A DNA stretch of 64,000 nt from an uncultured Alphaproteobacteria bacterium (lineage in GTDB: Bacteria > Pseudomonadota > Alphaproteobacteria > RF32 > CAG-239). Within the stretch, counting starts at the first letter, position 1. Every line of letters begins with the position of its first letter. Position numbers and translations under genes: made by a program. Where the stretch lies: positions 5,826-69,825 of the forward strand of contig CALXPT010000006.1 in NCBI GenBank assembly GCA_944390355.1, given 5' to 3'. The notes beneath the pieces were generated by a model that saw only the letters and a program-made list of their open reading frames with translations, made no database searches and was not told the origin of the DNA. Positions 6,099 to 48,668 of the stretch are shown here, one piece after another.

Positions 6099-7574
6099 AT
6101 GGAAACCAAAATAGACCCAGCCATTTTGCCGCAAAATCTTGAAGCAGAACAAGCCCTGCTCGGAGCCATATTGATAAACAACAAAGCTTTTGAAAAAGTT
6201 TCCGAATACCTAAAACCCTACCACTTTGCAGATTCGATTCATGCTAAAATATTCGAAGTCATATCAAAATTAATACAAAGAGGCCATGTCGCCGACGTCA
6301 TCACGCTCAAGAACTACTTTGAACAAGAAGGTTCGTTGAATGAAGTCGGTGGAGCAAAATACCTCTTAAAACTGGCCGACAGTGCTTCTCCGTTAACCAA
6401 CATCGAATACTACGGTCAGTTCATTTATGACAAATACCTAAGACGAGAGCTGATAGCCACCGGATATGACATTGTCAACGCCGCCATGACCGAAGACATA
6501 GATTCGGATGCCAATGAACAAATCGAGCAGGCAGAGAAAAAACTCTTTGAACTATCAAACCAAGGAGATATCAACGGCGGCTTTGTATCATTCGGAGAAG
6601 CCCTTGCCAGTTCACTATCGCTCATCGAGCAAGCCTACCAAAAAGAAGGCAAACTTTCCGGCCTTCCGACAGGCTTAGACGCTCTGGACGCCAAAACCGG
6701 CGGACTGAACAATTCCGACTTAATTATTTTAGCCGGCCGTCCTGCCATGGGAAAAACCGCCTTAGCAACAAATATTGCATTTAATGTGGCAGAATATATG
6801 TCCCGCGCCAAGGATTTGGATGAAAAATCAAGAGGCGTAGCCTTTTTCTCGCTCGAAATGTCGGCCGACCAGCTGGCCAGCCGTATATTATCAACGGTAA
6901 CCCAAACCTCAAGCCACAAAATGCGCACCGGAGAATTGGAAGAATCCGAATTTATCCGAGTTGCGGCCGGAGTCCGAGAATTAGAAAAAATTCCGTTATA
7001 TATAGACGATTCCCCCGGAGTAAACATCAACACCATCCGCACCCGCGCCCGTCGTCTAAAAAGGAACAAAGGTCTGGGCTTAATAGTCATAGACTATATC
7101 CAACTCATCAGCGGCAGCGGCACCAAAAAAACCGAGGGCAACCGCGTGCAGGAATTATCCGAAATCTCGCGAGGCCTAAAGATTTTAGCCAAAGAATTAA
7201 ATTTGCCGGTTATAGCTTTGTCGCAATTAAACCGCGGTGTTGAACAACGAGACGACAAACGCCCCGTCATGTCAGACTTAAGAGAATCAGGCTCCATCGA
7301 GCAAGATGCCGATATTGTCATGTTTGTCTTCCGCGAAAACTACTATATCAAGAACGAAGAACCCAAACAGCATGCAGGCGAAACACCGGAACATTTCCAA
7401 AACCGAATTGAAGAATGGGAAAACCGCTTGCGCAAAACCGAAAACATCGGTGAAGTCATCATCGGCAAGCAACGCCACGGCCCGACTGGTACGGTTCAAC
7501 TTTTCTGGAACGGCGAGTTTGCCCAGTTTGGCAATCTTGTAAGAGAAGAAAACCTTCCGGATCAAATAGGCTAA
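6099..7574 (+). CDS. dnaB: Replicative DNA helicase DnaB
   Basis: 491 aa. Walker A GRPAMGKT, 'FSLEMS', 'IIGKQRHGPTG', and a DnaB N-terminal domain 'LPQNLEAEQALLGAIL'. Confidence 0.95.
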   Translation: METKIDPAILPQNLEAEQALLGAILINNKAFEKVSEYLKPYHFADSIHAKIFEVISKLIQRGHVADVITLKNYFEQEGSLNEVGGAKYLLKLADSASPLTNIEYYGQFIYDKYLRRELIATGYDIVNAAMTEDIDSDANEQIEQAEKKLFELSNQGDINGGFVSFGEALASSLSLIEQAYQKEGKLSGLPTGLDALDAKTGGLNNSDLIILAGRPAMGKTALATNIAFNVAEYMSRAKDLDEKSRGVAFFSLEMSADQLASRILSTVTQTSSHKMRTGELEESEFIRVAAGVRELEKIPLYIDDSPGVNINTIRTRARRLKRNKGLGLIVIDYIQLISGSGTKKTEGNRVQELSEISRGLKILAKELNLPVIALSQLNRGVEQRDDKRPVMSDLRESGSIEQDADIVMFVFRENYYIKNEEPKQHAGETPEHFQNRIEEWENRLRKTENIGEVIIGKQRHGPTGTVQLFWNGEFAQFGNLVREENLPDQIG

Positions 7575-7669
7575 TGAAAACACTTAGCAAAGAAATATTT
7601 AATACCTTGCTTATCTTTGGTTTGATGTTTATCAAAACCTCGGCAATATTTGTTTCCTATGCAACGACA

Positions 7670-8095
7670 CTATTCAGCCGAGTCTTCAGGCGTTTTTTTG
7701 CGTTTTTCAAAAGAAAATGAGGCTTTAAGAGAAGTCTTTTCAAATTTCATTCCCGCATAATCATATTGAGACTTATCCGGAGTCGCTTTGGAATTTTGGC
7801 ACTGACGAGCCTGTTCATCATGATGACAATGTCCCCCACAACGGCATTCACCATGTCTTCCGCTTTCACAACAACAGTCATGAGCCTCATGAGAGGTACA
7901 ACAATCGCCTTGCCCGCATGAGCAACCGCAAGCGCAATTTTCCGTCTCATTAACGGCATCATCAGGCACATTCTGCCCCTTTTCCGTCAACACCGCCTTT
8001 TGCATTTTTCTAAGTTTTGCACGTTGCTGAGCCCCGCAAGAACAAGTACCTTGCACAGGGGCATGAATAATTAAATTTGCCAGCCATTTAAACAT
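7670..8095 (-). CDS. Cys/His-rich putative metal-binding protein (no recognised family)
   Basis: 141 aa with 19 Cys and 9 His, e.g. 'CACGCSCGQGDCCTSHEAHDCCCESGRHGECRCGGHCHH'. Strong RBS (AGGAGA, spacing 7) upstream of the ATG on the minus strand. Confidence 0.55.
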   Translation of the reverse strand: MFKWLANLIIHAPVQGTCSCGAQQRAKLRKMQKAVLTEKGQNVPDDAVNETENCACGCSCGQGDCCTSHEAHDCCCESGRHGECRCGGHCHHDEQARQCQNSKATPDKSQYDYAGMKFEKTSLKASFSFEKRKKTPEDSAE

Positions 8096-8176
8096 TTTTG
8101 TTTCTCCTGAAAAAATTTATGCTATATTAACCTAACAAGATTACAAAAGCCTTAAAAGCAATAAAAGGAAAACGGC

Positions 8177-8563
8177 GTGAAAAAAAAGCTAACGGACTAT
8201 AGCTCGGAAGAGTGGGAAAATATATGCAACCATTGTGGCAAATGCTGTTTGCTGAAACTCCAAGATGAAGATACGGGCAATATCTACTACACGGATATCG
8301 TCTGCAAGTATTATGATATGGAAAACGAACGTTGCAGTATCTACGAAAAACGTTGCGAAGTAGTTCCCGAATGCCTAAAATTAACACCGGACAACATCGA
8401 TAAAATTGAATGGATGCCCAAAAGCTGCGCCTATCGACGATTATTTGAAAAGGATTCGGGCTCGCCTTCTTCGACAAGCAGCATCAAAGGCCGCTGTATT
8501 TCCGAACAAAACGTAAAAGAAGACGAACTCGAAGACCACATCATAGATTGGGAAGACCTGTAA
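8177..8563 (+). CDS. YcgN/UPF0260-family Cys-cluster protein, copy 1 (divergent; GTG start)
   Basis: 'EEWENICNHCGKCCLLKLQDEDTGNIYYTDIVCKYYD...PECLKLTP...WMPKSCAYRRL' aligns with E. coli YcgN, but lacks the CxC of the central cluster. Confidence 0.7.
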   Translation: MKKKLTDYSSEEWENICNHCGKCCLLKLQDEDTGNIYYTDIVCKYYDMENERCSIYEKRCEVVPECLKLTPDNIDKIEWMPKSCAYRRLFEKDSGSPSSTSSIKGRCISEQNVKEDELEDHIIDWEDL

Positions 8564-8567
8564 AACC

Positions 8568-9074
8568 ATGGATCTAAAAACAATAGAATTACAAACGCCC
8601 TATACCCCGCAAAGTCGTTTTAATGACCTGAAAGGGATAGAACCCGAGTTTTGGAAAAAGAAAAAACTCGAACAAATGAACAAAACCGAATGGGAGCTAT
8701 TGTGCGACGGCTGCGGCAAATGCTGTTTAAATAAGCTTGAAATCAAAGGCAAAATAAGATTCACAAACACGCATTGCCGTTTTTTAGATTGCCAAACATG
8801 TTTATGCAAAATCTACGAACACCGTTTTGAAAAAGTTCCCGATTGCCGCGATATAGATTTGCAAGCCATCCGAGAAAAGCCTCGCTGGTTACCCAAGACC
8901 TGCGCCTATTGGCTTTTAGACAACGGCTATGACCTGCCCGAGTGGCACCCGCTCATCACGGGCAACGCCGATTCGGTACACCAAGCAAAAATGTCGCTAA
9001 AAGGACGTAAAATTATCTCAGAAAGCGGAATTAAAGACTATGAAAATTACACTGTTAACTGGCAAGACTTATAA
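8568..9074 (+). CDS. YcgN/UPF0260-family Cys-cluster protein, copy 2 (canonical)
   Basis: 'EWELLCDGCGKCCLNKLE...FTNTHCRFLDCQTCLCKIYEHRFEKVPDCRDI...WLPKTCAYWLLDNGYDLPEWHPLITG' is near-collinear with E. coli YcgN. Confidence 0.8.
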   Translation: MDLKTIELQTPYTPQSRFNDLKGIEPEFWKKKKLEQMNKTEWELLCDGCGKCCLNKLEIKGKIRFTNTHCRFLDCQTCLCKIYEHRFEKVPDCRDIDLQAIREKPRWLPKTCAYWLLDNGYDLPEWHPLITGNADSVHQAKMSLKGRKIISESGIKDYENYTVNWQDL

Positions 9075-9750
9075 TATAGAGCAAGAGTTTGATTTTCCGC
9101 TCAAGATAGTAAAATCACCGCGAGCCAAAAAATTAACTCTCCGTATAGATTCAAAGGAACATCTACCGATTCTGACGCTTCCGCGTTATTGTTCGCAAAA
9201 AAAAGCCTTGGAATTTGTCTGTGCCCACACGGAATGGATAAAATCAACCTTAGCCAAATTGCCGACAAGCCATCCGTTTCAAAACGGCGATAGAATTTCC
9301 GTTTTCGGCAAAGAAGTAACGATTTCACACCAACCGCAACGACGCTTGGGAGCCAAAATAGAAAACGACTTATTGGTAGTTTCGGGCGAAGAAGAGTTTA
9401 TAAACCGCCGCATCAAAGATTTTATCAAGAAAAAAGCCGCTGATGAATTTTATAAACGTTCCAAAAAATACGCCAAGAAAATCGGCGTTGAATTCAATGA
9501 CGTAACCATAAAAGACACCAAATCAAGATGGGGAAGCTGCTCTTCGTTAAACAACCTCAATTACAGTTGGCGGATAGCACTGGCACCGGAATTTGTAATT
9601 AATTACCTAATGGCGCACGAAGTTGCCCATCTGGCTCATCCCAACCACTCGCAAAGTTTTTGGCAAACGGTGGCAAAGCTGATTCCGGATTATGAACAAG
9701 GGGAACTCTGGCTCAAAGAGCATGGCCGAGAGTTATACCGCTTTGAATAA
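9040..9750 (+). CDS. YgjP-like metal-dependent hydrolase (DUF45/WLM, M48-related)
   Basis: C-terminal 'HEVAHLAHPNHSQSFW' zinc-binding motif. 236 aa. The first ATG overlaps the upstream gene by 35 nt, so the start is uncertain. Confidence 0.75.
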   Translation: MKITLLTGKTYNIEQEFDFPLKIVKSPRAKKLTLRIDSKEHLPILTLPRYCSQKKALEFVCAHTEWIKSTLAKLPTSHPFQNGDRISVFGKEVTISHQPQRRLGAKIENDLLVVSGEEEFINRRIKDFIKKKAADEFYKRSKKYAKKIGVEFNDVTIKDTKSRWGSCSSLNNLNYSWRIALAPEFVINYLMAHEVAHLAHPNHSQSFWQTVAKLIPDYEQGELWLKEHGRELYRFE

Positions 9751-47155: not shown

Positions 47156-48508
47156 CTAAAAAGCTAGGACCGGGCGAACGTACTCGCTATAGTCGTTCTT
47201 ATCGTAGCCGTACACGTAATCGCCTCTGAAACTCAAATTCCACGCGAGGTTGCCTGAATGCTCGGAAGAAGACCAATACCAATCTGGCTCCAATTTTGTT
47301 CCGCCGATTTTTCCTAACGCTATATTCAATACATCCTTATTACCACGTATAGCGTTTAATTCACCAAAAGCCGGCAAATACCAATCTCCGGCTATTGTTC
47401 CTTCTGTTTTATAGCTGTTCACATACTCAAATGCAGGACAACTCTTCCCATTCGCCTTACAATACTCCAACACTACCCTCGTATTGTTTTTACCTTGCCA
47501 ATCCGCTGTAACCGCTGATCGCGATGTTATATTACTCAACCCCGGAACATCAAAATAATCTGGAAATGACCAATATTGTCGAGATTCCTCCAACGCTATC
47601 GCTAAACGATTCTCTTCATCAAACACCACACCGATTGGTGTTTTATCAGAAATAACGTCAGGTGAGCAACTTCTGTCCGAATATAATATATCTCCGATTT
47701 TGCAATCGCAGTAATCGGCGGTTATGATGTATAAATTTGAGCATTCTTCATAAGTGCAGACCATGCACGGCGGACATTCGCTCTCTGTGCCGAGGTTCGG
47801 GCATGGTTCACATTCCGAACACAGGGTTGTATTGCCGCTTTGACAAGTGCTAGCGCCGTCCTCGCAGCCCATTTCCCCGCAATCCAAATATCCGGTGCAG
47901 TCTTTCTCTTTGATTTTGTATAAGTCGCCATCACAAGATTTGCATGGTTCGCCGTCAGTTTCATAACCAGAGGGAATTTCATCTAAGCTATATTGATATT
48001 CTGCCGAACATGACGGATTACAGCAGTCTTCATACAAATCATTGCCGCAAACCTCTCCGACACCTTTTAATGGCGGTTCGCAGGTCTTGTAATCACTCGG
48101 GCAGTCCGGAATACATTCGGCAAAATATTTGTTATTCAGCGGACAATATTTATTAGGCTTATAACCGCTCGGACATGAGGTTTTGGTAAAACCCATTTCA
48201 ATACAACTGTTATCACCGCCACCGCCCCCAGGGGGAACAACTTCCGGCGTACCGCCTTCCAAATCCGTACCGACAAAGTCCGCCCCGCCGCAATCTTCCG
48301 TATCAGTTATCCAGCACACCTGTGCAACTTTAATCTCTTGCCGCTCACTAAAACTCGGCGGAGACAAGTAAACTTCAGAAAAGAGGTGTGTGTGAAGTGT
48401 GTGAACAAATGTAATTTTTTCTGAAGGAAGGGAAATATCGGCTCTCACATCCGGCGCAAAAATCGCAACCGAAGATAATAGCCCAAACAACAAATAAACC
48501 TTGTTCAT
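47156..48508 (-). CDS. Secreted Cys-rich protein with an EGF/furin-like Cys-rich central region and a C-terminal DUF1566 (Lcl C-terminal-like) domain
   Basis: Signal peptide 'MNKVYLLFGLLSSVAIFAPDVRA' (ATG 48508, SD aagga). About 50 Cys in 'CPSGYKPNKYCP...CEPCPNLGTESECPPCMVC'. The C-terminus 'DWYLPAFGELNAI...DWYWSSSEHSGNLAWNLSFRGDYVYGYDKNDYSEYVRPV' matches the DUF1566 consensus. Confidence 0.7.
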   Translation of the reverse strand: MNKVYLLFGLLSSVAIFAPDVRADISLPSEKITFVHTLHTHLFSEVYLSPPSFSERQEIKVAQVCWITDTEDCGGADFVGTDLEGGTPEVVPPGGGGGDNSCIEMGFTKTSCPSGYKPNKYCPLNNKYFAECIPDCPSDYKTCEPPLKGVGEVCGNDLYEDCCNPSCSAEYQYSLDEIPSGYETDGEPCKSCDGDLYKIKEKDCTGYLDCGEMGCEDGASTCQSGNTTLCSECEPCPNLGTESECPPCMVCTYEECSNLYIITADYCDCKIGDILYSDRSCSPDVISDKTPIGVVFDEENRLAIALEESRQYWSFPDYFDVPGLSNITSRSAVTADWQGKNNTRVVLEYCKANGKSCPAFEYVNSYKTEGTIAGDWYLPAFGELNAIRGNKDVLNIALGKIGGTKLEPDWYWSSSEHSGNLAWNLSFRGDYVYGYDKNDYSEYVRPVLAF

Positions 48509-48668
48509 GATAAAAGTCCTTTCGATATTACTTATCTCCACGACTCGTATTATACCACAAGAAAAAAATCCTTTCAATAGAAATTTTCGAGGTTTTCCGC
48601 GGGTTTGCACGAAGTGTTTTGCAAAAAAAACTCCCTTTGGGAATAACATCACCAAAGGGAGTCTGCAC

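Follow-up and report, generated by a model that had tools for sequence, protein, structure and literature searches.

What is the small cysteine- and histidine-rich gene that lies between dnaB and a pair of ycgN genes in an uncultured alphaproteobacterium, and what could its product do? The gene is found in a stretch of 64,000 nucleotides (contig CALXPT010000006.1, positions 5,826 to 69,825), hereafter called the window, and it had been picked out for the cysteines and histidines crowded into part of its product. To our knowledge, few bacterial metallothionein-like proteins have been reported, the characterised ones being SmtA/BmtA, MymT and PmtA. UPF0260/YcgN, the family of the neighbouring proteins, is conserved across Proteobacteria, and we know of no function for it.

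Position, composition and expression signals of the gene

The gene is carried by the minus strand. The features delimited in it and in its upstream region are the following (coordinates of the window):

7670..8095, minus strand: coding sequence of 141 aa, ATG start, stop codon included (open reading frame list and translation)
7982..8095, minus strand: conserved N-terminal module, residues 1-38, with a predicted amphipathic helix (3-11), a loop P13-x-Q-G-T-C18-x-C20 and a second predicted helix (23-38) (invariant columns; pS far above pN; AF2 at low confidence)
7799..7936, minus strand: low-complexity core rich in Cys, His and Gly, residues 54-99 (composition; length and position hypervariable among homologues)
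7709..7765, minus strand: semi-conserved C-terminal motif Y111-F129 (YDYAGMKFEKTSLKASFSF), matching the first strands of the beta-meander of the family (alignments A1, A2 and A4)
8103..8108, minus strand: Shine-Dalgarno sequence AGGAGA, 7 nt upstream of the ATG (sequence; AAGGAG or AGGGGA in all orthologous loci)
8120..8131, no strand assigned: AT-rich, near-symmetrical -10-like box TGCTATATTAAC (GCTATAAT in relatives), within the 81-bp spacer that separates the gene from ycgN-short (intergenic alignment)

The sequence-only reading had reported a Cys/His-rich open reading frame of 141 aa. The frame, its ATG and the 46-residue string quoted from it (residues 54-99) are exact, but the counts are not: instead of 19 Cys and 9 His in about 70 residues, the protein contains 15 Cys and 7 His in total, with 13 and 6 of them, respectively, in these 46 residues. 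The cysteines occupy positions 18, 20, 54, 56, 58, 60, 65, 66, 74-76, 84, 86, 90 and 99. Besides its Cys and His, the core has 7 Gly; it includes five CxC and three CC motifs and is devoid of aromatic residues. Cysteine makes up 10.6% of the whole protein and 28% of the core, compared with 1.4% in the long open reading frames of the window, an enrichment that is far beyond chance. Histidine accounts for 5.0% of the residues of the protein (2.2% in the long open reading frames) and for 13% of those of the core, and its longest run is HH. No tandem repeats of note were found from which the Cys-rich core could have originated.

Other parts of the first description were borne out. The ribosome-binding site described as strong is read on the plus strand as TCTCCT at 8103-8108, 7 nt before the ATG. 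The lack of a signal peptide agrees with a hydropathy scan, in which the best 19-residue Kyte-Doolittle window reaches only 0.85; the N-terminal hydrophobic stretch is about 10 residues long and the QGTC sequence does not match a lipobox. Because neither a signal peptide nor a membrane span could be formed by hydrophobic segments this short, the protein is expected to be cytoplasmic, and its identification as a secreted or lipoprotein Cys-rich peptide was discarded on the same observations.

In the 81-bp spacer, the TATAAT-like box and the Shine-Dalgarno sequence are the only elements conserved in the intergenic alignment. The box reads TGCTATATTAAC in the window and GCTATAATAGC in one of the related loci (L003). 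A sigma-70 consensus scan of the spacer detected no canonical -35/-10 pair, and no metal-regulator operator was recognisable in its alignment. Given its near symmetry, the box may act as a bidirectional promoter for the gene and ycgN-short; promoters of this kind have been described in bacteria (PMC12825309, PMC10268837). The gene is probably well translated and expressed, because its Shine-Dalgarno sequence is strong and conserved and is accompanied by the -10 box.

A conserved gene of uncultured gut Alphaproteobacteria

Gene calls in public metagenome assemblies include the identical protein in 115 blocks. Among seven independent samples, five have the gene unchanged; of the other two, one differs by two synonymous changes and one by two amino-acid changes, and the neighbouring genes carry a few substitutions across the same samples. 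The core is stable within the species. Syntenic in-frame orthologues are present in metagenome-assembled genomes of related uncultured Alphaproteobacteria and in human-gut metagenome contigs, and they keep both the start (MFKWLA...) and the AAGGAG site. Between lineages that share 40-53% identity the frame is maintained, and indels come in multiples of three. Over codons 1-38, synonymous differences largely exceed the non-synonymous ones (window versus L001: pS = 0.60, pN = 0.13; L002 versus L003: pS = 0.62, pN = 0.11; L003 versus L004: pS = 0.59, pN = 0.01), a pattern by which these first 38 codons are judged to be under strong purifying selection. On this comparative evidence, the gene is real, conserved and restricted to a group of uncultured gut Alphaproteobacteria.

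The alternative is that the dnaB-ycgN spacer contains no gene here but a chance open reading frame or the shadow of a feature on the other strand. It can invoke the lack of an annotated name or domain in any source, but it retains practically no credibility against the excess of pS over pN in the head, the conserved start and Shine-Dalgarno sequence, the frame kept at such low identity and the roughly 90 distinct homologues, and these comparative data rule it out as an explanation. The statement that no gene is apparent on the opposite strand also holds, as the antisense open reading frames across the gene are just 48-51 aa long.

An invariant N-terminal module defines the family

The family is small. 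A single-sequence search retrieved 3 homologous proteins, a profile search 38, and an exhaustive HMM search (1.84 billion cluster representatives, E ≤ 1e-3) 51 clusters. All the members are short (those listed have 40-141 aa), and except in two truncated entries their match to the profile begins at residue 1 or 2. None of the homologues bears a name or a Pfam domain. The protein was said to belong to no known family, and this agrees with our searches: no family match was found for it or 25 of its homologues in Pfam, NCBIfam, PADLOC and PHROGs, nor in a sequence-profile search of the PDB. One member has a weak match to the Pfam Metallothio model (E = 0.029). As judged from these searches, the family is undescribed, unnamed and narrowly distributed.

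The alignments divide the proteins into four parts. The first is a head with invariant columns M1, F2, W4, L5, A6, P13, Q15, G16, C18, C20, L28, M31 and Q32 in alignment A2 and, over the whole family, the near-invariant pattern M-F-x-W-L-x(3)-L-x(3)-P-x(2-5)-C-x-C-(C)-E-x-K-x(3)-L-x(2)-M. The first predicted helix is amphipathic (muH 0.40-0.52). The second part is an acidic linker. A beta-meander motif, FSSxSYxxxYxFD...GxYxRxVxY, also recurs in the family, and its last strand seems to be missing from the protein of the window. The inserts rich in Cys, His and Gly are free in length and are placed either before the meander or at the C-terminus. The homologues have between 0 and 13 cysteines after residue 40 (median 6); several of them have none or only 1-2, and the protein of the window represents the maximum.

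The Cys/His stretch, which had drawn attention to the protein, is in fact the most variable feature of its family, and the N-terminal module had been overlooked. As far as the alignments tell, the defining feature of the family is this invariant module, MFxWLxxxLxxxPxxxxCxC(C)...L..M, and not the Cys/His stretch.

The AF2 model of the protein of the window has a pLDDT of 47.7, with the helices 3-11 and 23-38 at low confidence and core residues 54-99 disordered (pLDDT about 40). For the homologue P0003, modelled with 40 sequences, the pLDDT is 61.5 and only the beta-meander (strands 68-71, 74-81 and 86-93) reaches values of 76-84. A Foldseek search against the PDB gave no match at E ≤ 0.001. 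The models suggest a disordered insert flanked by foldable modules.

Genomic context and proposed order of gain

The gene is flanked by dnaB on one side and on the other by an operon of two ycgN genes and a ygjP-like gene:

6099..7574, plus strand: dnaB, convergent with the gene, 95-bp gap (Pfam DnaB and DnaB_C)
8177..8563, plus strand: ycgN-short, a truncated and divergent YcgN paralogue of 128 aa with a CxxCxxCC domain, head-to-head with the gene (PF03692, 5e-11; below all NCBIfam YcgN cutoffs)
8568..9074, plus strand: ycgN-long, a canonical YcgN/UPF0260 cysteine-cluster protein of 168 aa (NCBIfam NF003501, 176.3 bits for a cutoff of 167)
9040..9750, plus strand: ygjP-like gene with a metallopeptidase fold, in the same operon, overlapping ycgN-long by 35 nt (PF01863, 1.4e-51)

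The divergent transcription from two ycgN/UPF0260 paralogues that had been proposed is confirmed by these matches (PF03692 at 5e-11 for 8177-8563; 176 bits for a YcgN cutoff of 167 for 8568-9074). The two YcgN proteins of the window are 38% identical, and the short copy is devoid of the LPxWHPLxTG..VH segment. The short form is not a peculiarity of the window: it makes up at least 225 clusters at 57-78% identity and is better conserved than the Cys/His-rich protein. A search of the literature on YcgN, UPF0260 and PF03692 found nothing on function. The neighbours of the gene in the window are MatE, DUF805, a DNA-alkylation repair protein, L28, DnaB, the two YcgN, YgjP, Bax1-I, L34 and RNase P; within about 7 kb of it in the window, there is no gene for a metal transporter or a metalloregulator.

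The context was surveyed in 51 loci that carry the gene, corresponding to about 20 distinct lineages, with a metagenome scan for loci based on alignment A2; the distant homologue P0088 was added to them. In most of them, ycgN-short, ycgN-long and ygjP follow one another in the direction opposite to the gene, which is head-to-head with ycgN-short and convergent with dnaB. In L017, L018, L043, L044, L047 and L066, the gene is instead head-to-head with ycgN-long, which is followed by ygjP, and convergent with ycgN-short, which lies downstream of dnaB on the same strand. In both orders, the gene is head-to-head with a ycgN gene over a spacer of about 60-85 bp, and this holds for P0088 and for all the surveyed loci that show the flank (L041 starts just before the gene, so that its upstream flank is absent). 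The 35-nt overlap between ygjP and ycgN-long is kept in all loci. In two loci (L020 and L021), dnaB is not adjacent and TrbC genes stand beside the gene, the ycgN neighbour being kept; a role related to DnaB was rejected on this ground. The most distant homologue, P0090 (E = 3.6e-7), has no ycgN nearby.

Several features of individual loci may be mentioned. The TrbC genes that flank the gene in L020 and L021 are conjugative pilin genes, and L021 shows Bax1-I as well as ygjP twice. These features point to a rearrangement or a mobile-element insertion at the site of the gene. P0090 (L064 4001-4288, GCA_002410125.1) is flanked by two unknown proteins, one of 347 and one of 393 aa, that are paralogues of each other and have in common a C...H motif reminiscent of papain-like amidases, in a locus downstream of flavodoxin-like reductases. 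In L027 (1284-2441), the head of the protein (43 aa) runs in frame into about 340 aa of unrelated sequence resembling the beta subunit of a tRNA synthetase. The contig is 2.5 kb long and of low coverage, and the join is probably an assembly chimera, not a true fusion. On the dnaB side, no intrinsic terminator was predicted in the 95-bp gap of the window (7575-7669). In some relatives (L023, L030), the stop codons of dnaB and of the gene are 0-3 nt apart or overlap, and the convergent transcripts must therefore overlap.

The ycgN-short/ycgN-long/ygjP operon also exists without the Cys/His-rich gene within 2.5 kb. This is the case in three lineages (L052-L055, L056-L059 and L060-L063), in which dnaB, ycgN-short, ycgN-long and ygjP follow one another on the same strand. 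In L052, ycgN-short starts on the stop codon of dnaB, and the two ycgN genes of L060 are separated by genes for an acetyltransferase and an ASCH-domain protein. In neighbour-joining trees of DnaB and of the combined YcgN-short, YcgN-long and YgjP, two of the lineages without the gene are outermost and the third is nested among those that carry it; since the trees are midpoint-rooted, without an outgroup, this polarity is provisional. The simplest reading of this topology, provisional as well, is that the ycgN duplication predates the gene, which would have been gained later and lost at least once. The head-to-head position could be structural: as ycgN-short overlaps the dnaB stop codon in L052, a gene inserted between dnaB and ycgN in the antisense direction must bring a promoter for the downstream operon.

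These data also bear on the suggestion that the three genes form a small cluster of metal or Fe-S type Cys-rich proteins. Their adjacency stands, but a functional cluster is not established, as the operon occurs without the gene; an obligatory coupling with YcgN was rejected on the same evidence and on the location of P0090 elsewhere.

Possible functions of the protein

The interpretation to which we tentatively incline, while stopping short of calling it probable, is that the protein combines a metal buffer or reservoir, similar to a metallothionein, with a conserved module for docking or oligomerisation. Metal binding, the metal involved and any partner are our inferences. The insert would bind soft metal ions in thiolate/imidazole clusters, most plausibly Zn(II) or Cu(I) and possibly Ni, Co or Cd; the protein would act as a buffer or reservoir of the metal in the cytoplasm; and the conserved head and the meander would serve oligomerisation or docking to a partner. 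The composition of the core speaks for such a role, with its 28% of Cys arranged in five CxC and three CC, its Gly spacers, its interspersed His and its lack of aromatics, and so does its alignment with a second metallothionein-like peptide of the same genome (see below). The weak Metallothio match of one member, the cytoplasmic location and the predicted disorder of the insert between foldable modules are also in its favour. Against it, no homology to characterised metallothionein families was found in Pfam for the protein or 25 of its homologues; the spacer shows no recognisable metal-regulator operator, genes for metal transport or metalloregulation are absent within about 7 kb, and the confidence of the AF2 models is low. 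The features by which metallothioneins are operationally recognised, namely small size, a very high proportion of Cys in CxC, CC or CxxC motifs and a near or complete lack of aromatics, are present in the 46-residue core and not in the whole protein, which has 10.6% Cys and whose head and tail include F, W and Y, nor are they common to all the members of the family, with their 0-13 cysteines after residue 40. Because several homologues have 0 or 1-2 cysteines in that region, bulk metal storage cannot be the core or ancestral function of the family; some lineages may have it as an add-on.

Comparison with known systems helps to delimit this metal-buffer role. The protein resembles metallothioneins (SmtA/BmtA of PF02069, mycobacterial MymT, Pseudomonas PmtA) in the composition of its core only: all are small, cytoplasmic and predicted to be unstructured without metal, with CxC and CC motifs, Gly spacers and His. 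It differs from them in that the Cys-rich part is an insert, absent from some members, in a larger protein with its own head and beta-meander. SmtA/BmtA proteins have a zinc-finger-like fold of about 55 aa with a conserved Cys/His pattern. Neither the protein nor 25 members of its family match the PF02069 Metallothio_Pro profile at E ≤ 1, and an assignment to SmtA/BmtA was discarded. The copper storage proteins Csp1/Csp3 are four-helix bundles lined with Cys; they were also rejected, as there is no Pfam match and the AF2 model has two short N-terminal helices and a Cys region that is non-helical and disordered. The His-rich nickel-binding proteins of the Hpn/Hpn-like type were set aside too, since His makes up just 5% of the protein (13% of the core) with no run longer than HH.

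The third domain of SlyD binds nickel, and the metal-binding extensions of the nickel metallochaperones SlyD, HypB and UreE are reservoirs for metal delivery whose length varies between species (PMC11198818, PMC7055735). The protein of the window has the same plan, a conserved module with a low-complexity extension of species-variable length, and these variable His/Cys-rich tails, rather than a classical metallothionein, may be the best working analogy for it. It differs in the absence of a PPIase, GTPase or UreE domain and of a hydrogenase or urease context, and in the dominance of Cys rather than His. As a new modular family, the proteins would add to the knowledge of Zn/Cu buffering in gut bacteria, and their range of 0-13 cysteines makes them a natural experiment in the evolution of low-complexity metal-binding segments; if the protein were only a lineage-specific metal sponge, it would be a modest addition to the catalogue.

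Alternatively, the protein could be a dedicated partner of the neighbouring YcgN proteins, as a donor of metal or Fe-S, an assembly factor or a regulator. Its N-terminal module would then dock on YcgN-short or YcgN-long and the Cys/His insert would supply or hold the cofactor. This possibility, which we consider unlikely although it is compatible with a role as metal buffer, draws on the head-to-head linkage to ycgN over about 60-85 bp, kept in two gene orders in P0088 and in the surveyed loci that show the flank, and outlasting the loss of the dnaB neighbour in L020 and L021. The near-symmetrical -10 region common to both units could also co-express them, in line with the concept of bidirectional promoters (PMC12825309). 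Nevertheless, YcgN does not require the protein, because the operon occurs without it within 2.5 kb in three lineages (two basal and one nested in the midpoint-rooted trees); the most distant homologue, P0090, lies away from any ycgN, and the head-to-head position may be purely structural. The protein is not itself a YcgN paralogue: it has a CxC and CC pattern, unlike the CxxCxxCC of the adjoining YcgN/UPF0260 (PF03692) Cys-cluster proteins, and it does not match the PF03692 and NCBIfam YcgN (PRK05170) models, as both neighbours do. If the adjacency is functional, the protein could help to assign a role to UPF0260.

A more elaborate scenario joins these elements with the order of gain. The gene would have arisen or landed in the dnaB-ycgN junction of a single clade of gut Alphaproteobacteria, its head would dock on the YcgN proteins encoded from a common bidirectional promoter, and its expanding and contracting tail would feed or buffer their metal or Fe-S cofactor. 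As a whole this sequence of events is distinctly unlikely; if true, it would offer a first functional handle on UPF0260/YcgN and an example of a newly evolved metallochaperone.

It seems improbable that the protein is a thiol redox buffer or switch, whose thiols, with or without bound Zn, would scavenge or sense oxidants met in the gut, such as HOCl, H2O2 or electrophiles, in the manner of the zinc-thiolate switch of Hsp33. The invariant CxC and the high thiol density are in keeping with it, as are the cytoplasmic location and partial disorder that are predicted, and metallothioneins have also been tied to protection from oxidative stress (PMC11237414). On the other hand, the protein is without an effector domain, no redox genes are found beside its gene in the main lineage, and the number of Cys varies from 0 to 13 among its homologues.

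Lastly, the protein could be read as the precursor of a ribosomally synthesised peptide (RiPP), made up of a conserved leader and a hypervariable Cys-rich core, with the YcgN proteins as modifying enzymes and the YgjP-like metallopeptidase as the processing one. The near-invariant residues 1-38 followed by a hypervariable Cys-rich region do have the layout of a leader and core, and the adjacent operon provides a gene with a metallopeptidase fold. Yet the existence of the ycgN/ygjP operon without the gene indicates that it is not a dedicated maturation system, and genes for an exporter or for radical-SAM, MNIO, cyclodehydratase or LanM-type enzymes are absent within 5-6 kb in all loci; apart from ygjP, the neighbours are two ycgN, dnaB and housekeeping genes. 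Moreover, the region C-terminal to the supposed core is conserved and predicted to form a beta-meander, and conservation begins at Met1, which is unusual for a RiPP leader. A precursor peptide is, for these reasons, very improbable.

Other cysteine-rich genes of the window

A second small Cys-rich gene is encoded elsewhere in the window:

46902-47096, plus strand: open reading frame of 64 aa (17 Cys, 3 His) that shows KECTCG-type repeats and has an AAGGAG site of its own (sequence)

The peptide has no Pfam or PHROG match and, from its sequence, looks like a stand-alone metallothionein-like peptide. It had been described as not similar to the 141-aa protein. This is correct for the nucleotide sequences, between which no similarity was found, but the cores of the two proteins align by BLASTP with 41% identity over 46 aa (pairwise E = 4e-4). 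They have in common the motif style (G/K)ECxCG..CH, and the N-terminal module is absent from the 64-aa peptide. Because nucleotide homology is absent, this likeness would be compositional and is best read as convergent; an origin of the core by recombination from the 46902-47096 gene was rejected on the same ground. Adjoining the peptide, the minus strand encodes a 499-aa Cys-rich protein (47156-48655) with many CP and CxxC-type motifs, whose sole Pfam match is a sub-threshold one to the Lcl C-terminal domain (27 bits for a threshold of 34.9).
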